DNA of 64,000 nucleotides from an uncultured Oscillospiraceae bacterium (GCA_910588045.1 CAJUPS010000008.1:4012-68011); one strand, 5' to 3'. Counted from the first letter of the stretch, positions 4,477 to 60,182 are shown. The notes: generated by a model from the sequence alone, not told the origin. Numbers and translations are program-made.

Positions 4477-5163
4477 CTACGGCTCCATTTTATACCCCAG
4501 ACCCCATACCACCTTCAAGTACCGGGGGTTGGAGGGGTCGATCTCCAGCTTCTCCCGCAGGTGCCGGATGTGGACCGCCACCGCCCCCTCGGACCCGAAG
4601 GCCGTCTCATTCCACACCTGCTCATAGATCTGGGAGGAGGAGTATACCCGTCCCGGGTGGCGCATGAGGAGCAGGAGGATGTTGTACTCAATGGGAGTCA
4701 GATTCACCGCCTCGCCGTCCACGGTGACCATTTTGGTCTCGTCGTCCAGGGCGATGGTGCCGATCACCAGCTTGCTGGGCTTCTGCTCCATGCCGCCCAG
4801 GGTGGTATAGCGCCGCAGCTGGGAGCGCACCCGGGCCAGGACCTCGATGGGATTGAAGGGCTTGGTGATGTAGTCGTCCGCGCCCACGTTCAGGCCCAGC
4901 ACCTTGTCGGTATCCTCGCTCTTAGCGGTGAGGAGAATGATGGGAATATTGTAGTCCTCCCGCAGCTTGGCGGTGGCGGAGATGCCGTCCATTTCCGGCA
5001 TCATGATGTCCATGAGGATGAGATGGATCTCGTTTTTCCTGACGATCTCCATGGCCTCCCGGCCGGTGTATGCCTCAAAAAGCGTGTATCCCTCGGTGCT
5101 GAGATATATTTTCAGAGCGGAGACAATGTCTCTCTCGTCGTCGCAGATCAAGATATTGGCCAT
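4477..5163 (-). CDS. OmpR/PhoB-family response regulator
   Basis: Receiver motifs (ILICDDE, LILMDIMMPEMDG, LTAKS) plus a winged-helix C-terminus (YLKVVWGLGYKM). Confidence 0.9.
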   Translation of the reverse strand: MANILICDDERDIVSALKIYLSTEGYTLFEAYTGREAMEIVRKNEIHLILMDIMMPEMDGISATAKLREDYNIPIILLTAKSEDTDKVLGLNVGADDYITKPFNPIEVLARVRSQLRRYTTLGGMEQKPSKLVIGTIALDDETKMVTVDGEAVNLTPIEYNILLLLMRHPGRVYSSSQIYEQVWNETAFGSEGAVAVHIRHLREKLEIDPSNPRYLKVVWGLGYKMEP

Positions 5164-39471: not shown

Positions 39472-39732
39472 GGTATTCCTTTATTCAATAGATTTGCGCG
39501 GATGCACGCTTCGGCTTATTATAAACGGTTTTCCGGAAAAAAGCAATCCCTTCGGGCAAAAATCGTGATACCGGCGGGTATTGACGTTTTTCTGCCGTTT
39601 GTGCTATGATGAACCCGGCAAGGATAAAAACACGTCCCGGTCGGTAGTCCGGGAGCGGCGGTATGCCGTCAGTAGCCTTCCTCCTTTGGTCGTCCGTTCC
39701 TTGCGGCAGCATATAAAAGGAGGAATCTGAGC

Positions 39733-56861: not shown

Positions 56862-56927
56862 TTCCTCTCCCCCCTGTCTCCTGGTCTGTTACCATTATAT
56901 ACAGCCCGGCGGCGGAGGTGCAAAAGG

Positions 56928-56961
56928 AGGCCCCGGAGGGCGCGCGCGTCCTCCGGGGCCT
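56928..56961 (-). terminator. Terminator after the beta-helix protein gene
   Basis: 12-bp stem AGGCCCCGGAGG / CCTCCGGGGCCT, followed by CCTTTTG on the minus strand. Confidence 0.6.
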
Positions 56962-56994: not shown

Positions 56995-58728
56995 TTATGC
57001 CTTGGCCGCAAGGGCGGCTTCCAGTTCGCCGTAGAAGACGGTCAGACGCTCGCCAAGGTCCATAACGATCATGTCGTCCTCGCCTTCGACGGTGACAACA
57101 AAATCAGTCAGGCCCTTGTACTCCACAAAGCTCTCCAGAACCTCGCGGAGAATCGCTACGGTCACAAGCTCGTCGGGGTCAAGGGGTTCGTCTTCGGTGT
57201 CGATGACCAGCGCCTCGTCAAGAGCCCAGTAGATCGCCTGTGCGTAGTCGTGGTCTGCCCACTGGAAGTCCTCGGGGAGCTCCACATCCTCGACGCCCTC
57301 GTACTGGCGCAGAGCCTCCAGCAGCTCGGCCGTGGAGATCAGGCCAGCCAGAGGGATTTCCTCGTCTTCGATGGTGGTAGCGTCGGCAGAAGCAGCAGCA
57401 AAGCCATCCACCATGGGAATGTCTTCATTCCCGGGAATAACAGGATCGTCTGGCTGCTCATTGTCCGTGGAAGGAACATAGAGAGAAAGCACCCTGTCAA
57501 AGTCCAGAGATGTTGTTCCCTCCGGCAGTTTTCCCGCGTGGATGGGATCTCCATTGTGGTCGTAAACGACATCCAAGTGGTTCCCCTCCGCGTCCGTAAT
57601 GGTGACGTTGCCCTCCTCGTCCACGGAGATGGTATAGCCGTTGCTGGTGTAACTGCCCATGCGTACCGCCATGACCGTGCCGGACTGTGCCTCATTTTCG
57701 GAGATCTCACCGCCGGACATCTGGAAGTTGCCGCCTTTGTTCTTGTCTTGATCTACCCCTATACCGCCTCCGCTGACGGACGATGTATTCTGGGTAATCT
57801 TGCCGCCAGTCATGTTGACTGTACCGTCAACCCGCACATATACACCGCCGCCACAGCTGTCCACATCTACCAGCTGGCCGCCGGACGGGCGTTTCCCCAC
57901 GGCTTTGTTGCCGCTGATCTCACCGTCACTCAAATTGAGGGTTCCATCTGATACAAAGACACCGCCGCCGTACTTGCCAGCCCGGTTGTCCGTGATCTCA
58001 CCACCGGTCATGTTAAAGGTAGCGCCTGTTGTCACACTTACACCGCCACCTACTGAACCACTCCAGTTATGTGTGATCTCTCCACCGGACATGTTGAAGG
58101 TCCCTCCGTAGTACACTCCAACACCGCCGCCTGTAGCGTTCTGCTGGTTGTCGCAGATGATCCCACCGGTCATATTGAAGGTAGCATTGTCCACATTTAC
58201 ACCCCTACCGACGTTTTGGGTGACCTTACCGCCGTTCAATGTGAACTCGCCGCCATTGTTTACAGCGATACCACCCGCGTTGGAACCGGTAATGATGCCC
58301 GTCTCTTCGCCGCGGGACTCAGCGCCTTCTTCCATTACTTTATCCATTATGGTCAAAGAGGTATCTTCACCGGTTACCTTAATAACAGGCCCGCTTTTTC
58401 CTCCTCGCCAGAAGATATAGCTGTCGTACCCTTCGTCGTAATTATCTTTAGTGGTCACCTTTTCGTTGAGTTGCAGCTTGTGGCCATTCAGGTCGATGTT
58501 GGCGTCTATGCCATCGCTGATAACGAGGGTCTTATCCAGGGTGAAGTCGCCGCTCAGGTAGTAGTCATACGCTTTGCTCTCGCTGCCCTCTACATCATAT
58601 CCGAGCAGTGCGCCAGTGTCGGTGTCGATGTAGTCCGTCGTAAGCTCCACCGCTGCAAACGCGGTGGTAGACAGCAGCGACAGCGCCATGATGAGGGCCA
58701 GGACCCGAGAAAAAATGTGCTTCTTCAT
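56995..58728 (-). CDS. Secreted repeat protein with a predicted parallel beta-helix (adhesin-like), signal peptide and acidic C-terminal domain
   Basis: Start reset to ATG 58728 (MKKHIFSRVLALIMALSLLSTTAFA, a signal peptide). Seven tandem repeats of about 25 aa of the type G-x-TFNM(T/S)GGEI(T/S)xN....GGGV.V. Confidence 0.75.
   Translation of the reverse strand: MKKHIFSRVLALIMALSLLSTTAFAAVELTTDYIDTDTGALLGYDVEGSESKAYDYYLSGDFTLDKTLVISDGIDANIDLNGHKLQLNEKVTTKDNYDEGYDSYIFWRGGKSGPVIKVTGEDTSLTIMDKVMEEGAESRGEETGIITGSNAGGIAVNNGGEFTLNGGKVTQNVGRGVNVDNATFNMTGGIICDNQQNATGGGVGVYYGGTFNMSGGEITHNWSGSVGGGVSVTTGATFNMTGGEITDNRAGKYGGGVFVSDGTLNLSDGEISGNKAVGKRPSGGQLVDVDSCGGGVYVRVDGTVNMTGGKITQNTSSVSGGGIGVDQDKNKGGNFQMSGGEISENEAQSGTVMAVRMGSYTSNGYTISVDEEGNVTITDAEGNHLDVVYDHNGDPIHAGKLPEGTTSLDFDRVLSLYVPSTDNEQPDDPVIPGNEDIPMVDGFAAASADATTIEDEEIPLAGLISTAELLEALRQYEGVEDVELPEDFQWADHDYAQAIYWALDEALVIDTEDEPLDPDELVTVAILREVLESFVEYKGLTDFVVTVEGEDDMIVMDLGERLTVFYGELEAALAAKA
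57688..58281 (-). repeat. Intragenic tandem repeats of about 75 bp encoding beta-helix coils
   Basis: The protein motifs FTLNGGKVTQN, FNMTGGIICDN, FNMSGGEITHN, FNMTGGEITDN, LNLSDGEISGN, VNMTGGKITQN and FQMSGGEISEN span residues about 150-347. Confidence 0.7.
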
Positions 58729-58756
58729 AGTTTCGTTTCCTTTCTTTGCATTATTC

Positions 58757-58937
58757 GGACGCAAAGGGAGTCCGGTAACCGAACGAGCATAGAGCCCGAG
58801 GGGCCCCACAGCCTCTGGTTTTGCGTCTTGCGGTTTCCCGCAATTTGCCGTGCAACCGGTCGAGCGTGGGGCGTTTGCCCCGACGCACCTGGCTTTGCGT
58901 CCCACTGTTTCCAATGGTTTGCCGATGGGATTTGCGT
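58757..58937 (-). ncRNA. Tandem c-di-GMP-I (GEMM-I)-like riboswitch aptamers in the 5' leader of the beta-helix protein gene
   Basis: Minus-strand aptamer 1 core is GGCAAACCATTGGAAACAGTGGGACGCAAAGCC (58923-58891), nearly identical to the Vc2 core GGCAAACCAUUCGAAAGAGUGGGACGCAAAGCC as I remember it. Aptamer 2 core is GGCAAATTGCGGGAAACCGCAAGACGCAAAACC (58849-58817). Both have a GNRA (GAAA) loop on the first helix and a second helix downstream. Confidence 0.65.
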
Positions 58938-59051
58938 AGGTAATTGATTTTGGGATGCATCCTCCTTCCATCAATTTATAGTCGAACTCCGTTTGGACAT
59001 ATACACCACCTGACCCGCCCCGAGGGTATGGCGGAAACAGGAGCATACACT

Positions 59052-59075
59052 TGTTGACAAAATTTTTATTTTGTC
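59052..59075. repeat. Left inverted repeat (IR-L) of the candidate invertible element
   Basis: TGTTGACAAAATTTTTATTTTGTC is the exact reverse complement of 59276-59299. Confidence 0.9.
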
Positions 59076-59124
59076 CTTTGGTTGCACGCTTTTAGGCAAC
59101 TAAGCCCCAAAGAAAAGCAAAAAA

Positions 59125-59190
59125 GGGCATGAAAAGTAAGGACTGCGCAAAATGCTTTTTCACAGTCCTTGGATTTTCATGTCCTTTTTT
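59125..59190. terminator. Bidirectional intrinsic terminator inside the invertible cassette
   Basis: Long imperfect hairpin GGGCATGAAAAGTAAGGACTG ... CAGTCCTTGGATTTTCATGTCC, with TTTTTT after it on the plus strand and TTTTTTGCTTTT after it on the minus strand. Confidence 0.6.
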
Positions 59191-59239
59191 CGTTAAACCG
59201 CTGATTTTGGGAAAACCGTCTTTCTTTTTTGGAAATCTA

Positions 59240-59248
59240 TGCTATAAT
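59240..59248 (+). promoter_or_regulatory. Extended -10 promoter element inside the invertible cassette, currently facing the recombinase gene
   Basis: TGCTATAAT (TGn + TATAAT). There is no good -35, as is common for extended -10 promoters. I saw no comparable -10 on the opposite strand of the cassette. Confidence 0.5.
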
Positions 59249-59275
59249 GAGGGAAAGCTAACTATGTAGAAATGC

Positions 59276-59299
59276 GACAAAATAAAAATTTTGTCAACA
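59276..59299. repeat. Right inverted repeat (IR-R) of the candidate invertible element
   Basis: GACAAAATAAAAATTTTGTCAACA is a 24/24 match to the reverse complement of IR-L. It lies 10 bp from the recombinase stop codon. Confidence 0.9.
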
Positions 59300-59308
59300 T
59301 GACGAAAG

Positions 59309-60133
59309 TCACGTGACCAGCCCCAACTTTTCCAGCTGCCGCGCATGTTCCGCACCGGAGGTCATCAGATAAATCCGGGTGGTGTTGATTGAACTATGGC
59401 CGAGAACGTCCGCCAACTTTACGATGTCCTTGCAGACTTTATAGAAGGTTGTGGCGAACAGGTGGCGGAGGTTATGGGGGAAGACTTTGCTTTCCTCCAC
59501 GCCTGCCTTTTTGCAGATGGCTTTCATTTCGCGCCAAATCTGGCCGCGCGAGATCGGCTTACCGCTTCCGGTGAGAAAAATCTCCCCGGAGGCGATTTTG
59601 TTTTTCTTGGCGTACTTGAGCAACTTCCGACGGAGCTTGTTGGGAAGTAAAATGCTGCGGATTTTGCCCTTGAGATTGATGTCCGTCGCCGTCCGGTTTG
59701 CAGCTTCAACAGTAATATAGCGGACCTCCGAAACGCGGATCCCCGTGGCGCAAATGGTCTCCATCAGGAGCTCCAATCGCTCCTGGCCCGTCTCACGGGC
59801 GGCGTCGAGTAAGCGCTGGTACTCCGCCTTGGTCAGCTCCTTGTTCTCCTCCCGGAACGCCTTCCTCTGCACTCGGAGAAACTTGATTTTGCAGTCTTCC
59901 CGACCCAGAAACCTGAGAAACCGATTGACAGCGGACAACATGGAGTTTATCGTCACTGGCGCATATCCCTGTTCCAGCAGGTACTCCCGCCAGCCGGATG
60001 CCTCCTCCAACTCCAGGTCATCCAGCCATGCCGCAAACGCCCGTACGTCCCGGCGGTACTTCTCCACAGTCCCTTTACTGCGCCCCTCGCTCTCCAAATA
60101 AGAGGTGAAGTTTAATATATCGTCTATACGCAT
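59309..60133 (-). CDS. Site-specific tyrosine recombinase (XerC/D-integrase family)
   Basis: 274 aa with an N-terminal SAM-like core-binding domain. Catalytic signature R (ATGIRVSE), HxxR (HNLRH) and H...Y (LGHSSINTTRIY). Confidence 0.9.
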   Translation of the reverse strand: MRIDDILNFTSYLESEGRSKGTVEKYRRDVRAFAAWLDDLELEEASGWREYLLEQGYAPVTINSMLSAVNRFLRFLGREDCKIKFLRVQRKAFREENKELTKAEYQRLLDAARETGQERLELLMETICATGIRVSEVRYITVEAANRTATDINLKGKIRSILLPNKLRRKLLKYAKKNKIASGEIFLTGSGKPISRGQIWREMKAICKKAGVEESKVFPHNLRHLFATTFYKVCKDIVKLADVLGHSSINTTRIYLMTSGAEHARQLEKLGLVT

Positions 60134-60142
60134 AAAATGAAT

Positions 60143-60182
60143 CCCCCTTTTGTGTTCCTTCTAAGTTTCACACAAAAGGGGG
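60143..60182 (-). promoter_or_regulatory. Perfect 13-bp hairpin immediately upstream of the recombinase ATG that sequesters its SD (terminator/attenuator-like)
   Basis: CCCCCTTTTGTGT / ACACAAAAGGGGG. On the minus strand the 3' arm ACACAAAAGGGGG carries the only purine-rich SD, 9 nt before ATG 60133. Confidence 0.5.

Follow-up and report, generated by a model that had tools for sequence, protein, structure and literature searches.

The window analyzed here is a stretch of 64,000 nucleotides from an uncultured mouse-gut Oscillospiraceae bacterium (GCA_910588045.1 CAJUPS010000008.1:4012-68011), and our subject is a four-element locus on its minus strand, running from 60133 down to 56995. A tyrosine recombinase gene is followed by a 200-bp cassette bracketed by inverted repeats, by a leader with two class I cyclic diguanylate (c-di-GMP-I) aptamers, and by the gene for a secreted surface protein (the cargo); no further supported open reading frame lies between these elements (60133-56995). 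We judge it likely, with a probability of roughly 0.7, that the locus is a phase-variation module acting in series with second-messenger control. Its features, from the recombinase to the cargo, are:

60142..60182, minus strand: hairpin CCCCCTTTTGTGT...ACACAAAAGGGGG, the 3' arm of which holds the recombinase Shine-Dalgarno sequence (read from the sequence)
59309..60133, minus strand: Xer-like tyrosine recombinase, presumed invertase, 274 amino acids (Pfam, NCBIfam, PDB profile, catalytic residues)
59276..59299, no strand assigned: recombinase-proximal inverted repeat, in which the 6-nt centre TTTTTA separates the arms GACAAAA and TTTTGTC (repeat search)
59238..59248, plus strand: extended -10 promoter motif TATGCTATAAT (TRTGnTATAAT), conserved in the cassette alignment
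59119..59190, no strand assigned: long symmetric hairpin with an A-run and a T-run on its flanks (repeats I3 and I5)
59081..59100, no strand assigned: palindrome GTTGCC-N8-TGCAAC (minus-strand notation) beside the distal repeat, conserved in most cassettes
59052..59075, no strand assigned: distal inverted repeat, adjoining the cargo side (repeat search)
58934..59051, minus strand: leader spacer of 118 nt, from the distal repeat to aptamer 1 (homology to sister loci)
58851..58933, minus strand: c-di-GMP-I aptamer 1 (RF01051, 50.2 bits; 20 of 21 model pairs standard)
58771..58859, minus strand: c-di-GMP-I aptamer 2 (RF01051, 56.5 bits; 21 of 21 model pairs standard)
58729..58770, minus strand: expression platform, between aptamer 2 and the cargo start (repeat I9)
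56995..58728, minus strand: secreted surface protein, 577 amino acids (AlphaFold2, homologue domains, PDB profile, Foldseek)
56922..56958, minus strand: GC-rich hairpin CCCCGGAGG...CCTCCGGGG followed by CCTCCTTTTG, likely the cargo terminator (read from the sequence)

A first-pass annotation of the window had called the tyrosine recombinase, a 200-bp cassette with perfect 24-bp inverted repeats (59299 to 59052), two GEMM-I-like aptamers and a secreted beta-helix cargo, and all four elements are present at the coordinates called there, by the profile, repeat, covariance-model and structural matches given below. For comparison, we retrieved homologous loci (designated L001, L002 and so on) from genome and metagenome collections by the exact repeat core; exact-protein look-ups added many more.

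The recombinase matches the Pfam families Phage_integrase (PF00589, 2.4e-25) and Phage_int_SAM_1 (PF02899, a SAM-like N-terminal domain, 2.3e-11), and the catalytic residues R133, K155/157, H220-x-x-R223, H246 and Y255 can be read in its translation; that is, both the PF00589 match and the R-K-H-R-H/W-Y residues by which we recognize a tyrosine recombinase are present. The scores fall under the NCBIfam equivalog cut-offs for XerA (158 bits versus 220), XerD (131 versus 330) and XerC (120 versus 335), and the nearest solved structures are the XerC-like 4a8e (4e-23) and then XerD (1a0p); by these comparisons, the protein is Xer-like and is not an Xer orthologue. Models for invertases of the FimB/E type match weakly (7e-8 and 2e-6), far under their cut-offs. 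The stop codon lies 10 bases from the proximal inverted repeat. At the other end of the gene, a hairpin that holds the Shine-Dalgarno sequence precedes every paralogous recombinase gene (L004, L006, L038, L076, L080, L084, L094); its arms differ among these loci while the pairing is kept, and it probably attenuates translation of the recombinase.

The inverted repeats of the cassette are 24 nt each, are perfect and enclose exactly 200 nt; the number of such pairs expected by chance is 0 (100 shuffles). The G+C content of the cassette is 35%, versus 62% for the window. We derived the anatomy of the cassette from an alignment and a consensus fold of ten divergent homologous cassettes. Each repeat is a core-type site, that is, 7-nt inverted arms around an asymmetric 6-nt centre; the centre varies by locus (TTTTTA, TGTTTA, TTTTCA, TTTCTA), is equal in both repeats of one locus, and co-varies in the consensus fold at pairs 13/241 and 16/238. 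Read from this alignment, the co-varying centre marks the crossover; an equal centre in both sites is a requirement for strand exchange by tyrosine recombinases.

Within the ten cassettes, the motif TRTGnTATAAT is nearly invariant and its TATAAT hexamer is invariant; the motif is located ~30 nt inside one repeat, always between the terminator hairpin and that repeat, and faces outward. In the window, it is aimed at the 3' end of the recombinase gene, away from the cargo. The long central hairpin, in which at least six pairs show compensatory changes across paralogues, is read as a putative bidirectional terminator that would insulate the cargo from recombinase read-through. As a separate observation, an 11-nt exact direct repeat, TGATTTTGGGA, is found both at 59202-59212, in the invariant cassette block 'AAAATCAGCG', and at 58945-58955 in the leader; this may be chance.

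The first-pass annotation had proposed that the cassette inverts, and homologous loci provide direct comparisons. In counts over public assemblies, 29 complete cassettes have the orientation of the window (standard) and 4 are flipped (~7:1; about 88% standard), and 7 partial cassettes are all standard. Four homologous loci are present in both orientations among different assemblies:

P0129 locus: standard in L084; flipped in L085
P0218 locus: standard in L094-98 and L100-102; flipped in L099
P0245 locus: standard in L113-115, L118 and L119; flipped in L117
L003-type locus: standard in L003; flipped in L016

In two pairs that we measured, the recombinase-side flanks are 298/300 and 300/300 identical and the cargo-side flanks 89/90, whereas the inner segments can be matched solely after reverse complementation (195/201 and 198/200). 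In each of the four flipped cassettes, the extended -10 promoter is directed toward the cargo. In the L084/L085 pair, the polymorphisms that distinguish the outer arms remain with the flanks, so the crossover is placed inside the repeat. These comparisons support the conclusion that homologous cassettes do invert in nature.

The L084/L085 locus is closely related to that of the window: both contigs encode one and the same recombinase protein, with 89% identity to that of the window, and the distal repeat is followed by a homologue of the window's leader and then by the start of a c-di-GMP-I aptamer (aptamer 1), that is, the layout is the same. The species of the window also has this locus (GCA_965613965.1 carries L086 as well as a SipL identical to the window's, in L105), and at least two of the four inverting loci belong to that species. 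In L016 (630-1100), the promoter faces the cargo, and the recombinase gene is reduced to its last 20 nt, with an alpha/beta-hydrolase-like gene in its place; because the recombinase gene is deleted, this copy is naturally locked with its promoter toward the cargo. The copy in the window is most likely in the OFF orientation, because its conserved promoter is directed at the recombinase gene instead of the cargo.

Downstream of the cassette, the leader spacer is homologous to the segment that follows an AP2-like gene in sister loci (vide infra). Both aptamers exceed the RF01051 gathering score of 35 bits, are full length (model positions 1-87) and contain the conserved GGCAAA and ACGCAAA blocks and the GAAA tetraloop; the first hairpin of aptamer 2 shows compensatory changes in L076 and L080. 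A scan of the whole window showed one aptamer because overlapping matches from the same clan were removed; aptamer 1 was recovered by an Rfam scan restricted to 58850-58965. In the expression platform, CUUUGCGUCC (58766 to 58757) is complementary at 10/10 positions to GGACGCAAAG (58902 to 58893), the ligand-binding core of aptamer 1, and has an alternative partner in GCAAAG, located just 5' of the cargo Shine-Dalgarno sequence (AAAGGAAAC, 58743 to 58735). The platform is identical in L076, L080, L078, L116 and L131. In loci with the AP2-like gene, a short upstream open reading frame with a strong Shine-Dalgarno sequence enters aptamer 1 (L094, 4689-4805, 38 amino acids; L113, ~4650-4730); at the homologous site in the window (~58960), no spacer separates the Shine-Dalgarno sequence from the ATG, which is probably unused.

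These elements suggest a mechanism in which we infer, from sequence comparison, the flipping of the window's copy, the identity of the ON orientation, the functions of the promoter and terminator, and the sense of the riboswitches. The adjacent Xer-like recombinase would act on the two inverted 24-nt sites and flip the 200-bp cassette, in which a single extended -10 promoter near one end would face outward and the center would contain a bidirectional terminator. In the standard orientation, the promoter would drive antisense transcription of the recombinase gene and read-through from that gene would stop at the terminator, so that the cargo would be OFF. In the flipped orientation, transcription from the promoter would cross the distal repeat and yield a ~370-nt leader with two c-di-GMP-I aptamers, and these tandem aptamers would decide whether the surface-protein mRNA is expressed; expression of the cargo would then need both the ON orientation and a permissive c-di-GMP state. 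As a speculation, switching may be made infrequent, and tilted to OFF, by the Shine-Dalgarno hairpin in combination with the antisense promoter; this would match the ~7:1 excess of standard cassettes.

Several observations weigh against this mechanism. The promoter has no recognizable -35 element, and a scan for the sigma-70 consensus called no promoter in the cassette; the scan passes over this one because it needs a -35 match, and the basis for calling the promoter is therefore conservation of the extended -10 motif. In the standard orientation, the palindrome beside the distal repeat might serve as a promoter aimed at the cargo or as an operator. Folding of the leader with and without enforced aptamers gave no clear difference in the accessibility of the Shine-Dalgarno sequence and no ON/OFF prediction, and no intrinsic (U-tract) terminator follows the aptamers; because of the latter, riboswitch control would probably be translational or Rho-dependent. 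The window's own locus is found in the standard orientation only, in five complete cassettes (the window, L001, L002, L076, L080) and two partial ones (L077, L082), and look-ups with the exact recombinase, adhesin and SipL proteins did not find a flipped orientation there. Finally, many contigs end at the cassette or in the leader, which the multi-copy nature of the element explains; we also rejected these contig breaks as a sign of inversion, because multi-copy repeats such as the leader, cassette and recombinase fragment assemblies by themselves.

The palindrome and the excess of standard cassettes bear on a different reading, in which the switch swaps promoters or modulates expression, that is, the standard orientation also drives the cargo or is itself ON. 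Such transcripts might start, for instance, at the GTTGCC-N8-TGCAAC element, which is conserved beside the distal repeat, or within the leader at a weak TATAAA. A similar palindrome, GTTGC(A/C)C-N7/8-TGCAAC, lies ~55 nt upstream of the recombinase start codons in L084 and L038; a standard orientation in ~88% of assemblies would be surprising if the cargo were needed; and the cmrRST locus of C. difficile has several promoters that act in parallel to its switch. However, the half-sites of the palindrome are 7-8 nt apart, so it looks like an operator (it may serve some further factor) and not like a -35/-10 pair, and the sigma-70 consensus scan found no promoter in the leader. The predicted terminator would block read-through from upstream, and the sole strong and invariant promoter motif faces the cargo in the flipped state alone. 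We regard promoter swapping as unlikely, at odds well short of one in four.

The single orientation in the seven assemblies of the window's own locus is also what would be expected if this copy were a fossil or a locked module, with the cargo under the control of the riboswitches alone. Decayed relatives do exist: L016 has lost its recombinase, the recombinase reading frame of L030 is broken, and the P0246 locus (L122-L130, next to NAD synthase) retains a single repeat, the proximal one, and ~25 nt of cassette sequence, joined to the interior of a gene for a CLIPPER/CARDB/SLH surface protein. In the window, however, both repeats are perfect and identical to those in L001 and L080, and the recombinase reading frame is intact, encodes all of the catalytic residues and specifies a protein that L001 and L002 share at 100% identity. 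Sister loci of this kind do flip, and are likewise mostly found in the standard orientation (1/9 and 1/7 flipped). A locked copy thus seems improbable to us, somewhat more so than promoter swapping, and we infer that the copy in the window can invert because its parts are intact and its relatives flip.

The module belongs to a multi-copy family, with at least 4-5 copies per genome, at separate chromosomal sites, in one species. The protein collection contains at least 7,966 homologues of the recombinase at E <= 1e-60, and the few with a source name are labelled Oscillibacter or Oscillospiraceae; cassettes are confirmed at a few dozen loci, versus recombinase homologues in the thousands (gut metagenomes). 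The four-part order, which the first-pass annotation had proposed to look for in related genomes, recurs with varying cargo. In L076 and L080, the recombinase, cassette, leader and tandem c-di-GMP-I aptamers are followed by a secreted protein, and L131 and L116 have the same layout with an unrelated cargo of the Flg_new type. The cargo is 95% identical to that of the window in L076, 43% in L080 and 60% in L078 (a second locus in the sample of L001, beside recJ and relA), and the leader is visibly far better conserved (judged by eye); this suggests that cargo alleles are replaced or diversified behind a fixed control region.

In another version of the module (L094, L113), the same layout has an AP2-like gene inserted after the cassette, that is, the distal repeat is followed by a gene for an AP2-like protein of 149-176 amino acids, the leader, c-di-GMP-I aptamers (one per locus called by Rfam, another recognizable by eye) and a gene for a large SLH/MucBP surface protein. 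The AP2-like protein contains the motifs 'LTGQRFGKLTV', 'CRCDCG' and 'SCGC' and has a weak match to the AP2 DNA-binding domain (E ~5e-3); it may be a phase-variable regulator. Its gene follows the distal repeat in most family members (L003-L006, L016, L030, L038, L046, L054, L069, L094-L102, L113-L119), and a second copy is often found upstream of the recombinase gene. The window contains no copy of this gene, and its version of the module looks like the AP2-type arrangement minus the AP2-like gene. Proteins with PilZ domains (c-di-GMP receptors) are encoded near L003 (2221-2865) and L080 (7149-7832); L003 is also near flgK.

One locus records an exchange between modules. In L116 (3841-4420; assembly GCA_950064065.1), the P0245 recombinase and cassette are joined to the P0249 leader and cargo, as in L131; by comparison with L113 and L131, the junction lies inside the distal repeat, from its outer arm onward, and the P0245 and P0249 loci both have the centre TTTCTA. 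L116 is the product expected from site-specific exchange between loci with matching centres, and this suggests that a difference in centre normally acts as a barrier between loci. A metagenome-assembled genome, S10_Bin2, has three loci with one centre, which counts against a strict rule of insulation; binning errors are possible.

Such an exchange, located exactly within the distal repeat of loci with the same centre, would also be produced if the recombinase and its repeats were mainly a platform for gene capture or rearrangement (resembling a shufflon or an integron) that moves surface-protein genes, with inversion as a side reaction. The genes to the left of the recombinase differ in L076, and the cargo reading frames are 43-95% identical behind the far better conserved leaders, in line with this idea. 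However, each of the loci contains exactly two sites, inverted and ~200 bp apart, that enclose a conserved promoter and terminator, which is the anatomy of a promoter switch; models for integron integrases score the recombinase at 52 and 33 bits versus cut-offs of 265 and 435; and L116 is the one inter-locus recombinant seen in all. We consider a capture platform very improbable, and the least probable of the alternatives.

The cargo gene encodes a protein with a signal-peptide-like N-terminus, a predicted beta-helix (residues ~26-420), a disordered linker (422-461) and a helical, SLH-like C-terminal domain (462-577). Residues 26-420 are rich in beta structure in the AlphaFold2 model (predicted local distance difference test score, pLDDT, 78.9). 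The protein itself has no Pfam matches (SLH PF00395 included); the domains of its homologues include Beta_helix (PF13229), NosD (PF05048), Chlam_PMP (PF02415), Flg_new and SLH, and a PDB profile search finds Rhombotarget A (5.5e-7), pertactin (1.8e-3), NosD and Vag8. Foldseek with the model gives weak beta-helix matches (E-values 0.03-1), and residues ~462-577 resemble the SLH domains of SpaA and Sap (probability 0.9-0.99, TM-score 0.38-0.49). This acidic helical C-terminal domain (window 56995-57380, residues ~450-577), which no Pfam model describes, is common to P0012, P0017, P0025, P0027, P0037 and the L116 cargo, where it forms the tail of otherwise unrelated surface proteins (LRR, Big_2, Flg_new, beta-helix); such a shared tail fits a cell-wall anchor. 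In L103, L105 and L107, which represent the same chromosomal site, the cargo gene is cut to its C-terminal 350 amino acids by an element that encodes RepA_N and MobC/NikA-like proteins.

The genes that neighbor the locus have housekeeping functions (DUF2161, a 2-hydroxyacid dehydrogenase, SipL), and the 64-kb window contains no third copy of the repeat at three or fewer mismatches. We rejected a prophage integrase or mobile element on account of these neighbors, of the small Xer-like recombinase and of the lack of a further repeat copy in the window. Elsewhere in the window, and unrelated to the locus, is an azaaromatic (yjdF) riboswitch aptamer (39614-39713, plus strand; 78 bits versus a gathering score of 45).

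Among known systems, the C. difficile flgB leader contains both a RecV-inverted element and the c-di-GMP-I riboswitch Cdi-1-3, and both layers must permit expression; RecV is encoded away from its targets and serves many switches. The locus in the window resembles flgB in that an element inverted by a tyrosine recombinase and a class I c-di-GMP riboswitch would act in series in one 5' leader; by architecture, it differs from the RecV system in that each member of the family has one adjacent recombinase. At flgB, the order is promoter, riboswitch, switch, and the switch reportedly acts after initiation, through Rho (PMC7446863). In contrast, the switch in the window would carry the promoter and is upstream of two aptamers, whereas the flgB switch is downstream of its riboswitch; also, the cargo is a surface protein instead of a flagellar operon, and the host is a commensal Oscillospiraceae bacterium.

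At the cmrRST locus, an invertible element with a promoter that is active in one orientation is found together with a c-di-GMP riboswitch; the riboswitch transcript starts at the upstream promoter P1, and the switch promoter P2 is downstream of the riboswitch (PMC8844915). The likeness to the locus in the window is the combination of a c-di-GMP riboswitch with an invertible element that, in the window, would bear a promoter. However, the two cmrRST inputs are independent and parallel, because P2 bypasses the riboswitch; in the window, the inputs would be in series, because the invertible promoter is upstream and its transcripts must cross the riboswitches. The parallel to flgB and cmrRST drawn in the first-pass annotation thus stands for the combination of an inversion switch with a c-di-GMP riboswitch; the order of the elements is opposite.

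In E. coli fimS (FimB/FimE) and in invertons of the Bacteroides type, a short promoter segment between inverted repeats is flipped by an adjacently encoded tyrosine recombinase and controls a surface structure. The cassette in the window shares the short segment between inverted repeats, with a predicted promoter, the adjacent recombinase gene and the surface cargo; in contrast, its recombinase is Xer-like, its repeats are full arm-centre-arm core sites, a riboswitch layer follows, and the module is multi-copy with locus-specific crossover centres. Riboswitches for c-di-GMP are also known in the 5' untranslated regions of cell-wall adhesin genes in Firmicutes, including B. thuringiensis Bc2/cap and cbpA and C. 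difficile CD2831/CD3246 (PMC4933901, PMC7423583, PMC6200980). Those loci are without the DNA-inversion layer proposed for the locus in the window, and the latter also differs in its tandem aptamers and in a cargo that combines a beta-helix with an SLH-like tail, versus an LPXTG collagen-binding protein. A 2025 review presents the intersection of inversion and c-di-GMP as a novel regulatory insight, citing C. difficile for inversion and one epigenetic example in E. coli. Our literature search found no description of this module family or of invertons in Oscillibacter or Oscillospiraceae, and nothing relevant beyond C. difficile, in agreement with the first-pass annotation, which knew of no description for this lineage.

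To date, the pathogen C. difficile provides essentially the only documented cases of stochastic DNA inversion layered over c-di-GMP sensing. The locus in the window points to the same logic in commensal, largely uncultured Oscillospiraceae, wired differently, with a promoter switch upstream of tandem aptamers and with private recombinases, and amplified into a multi-copy family. A broader proposal, to which we give slightly less than even odds, is that gut Oscillospiraceae have a large family of self-contained recombinase/invertible-promoter/terminator modules, several per genome and partly insulated by their own 6-nt centres, that would combinatorially phase-vary surface proteins gated by c-di-GMP riboswitches as well as AP2-like regulators, with cargo swaps between loci of the same centre and a bias to OFF. 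The choice of loci that can recombine with one another appears to be governed by the crossover-centre sequence. The module would represent a two-input gate of natural origin, with DNA and RNA components, and a tractable entry point to the study of surface diversification in abundant gut Clostridia.

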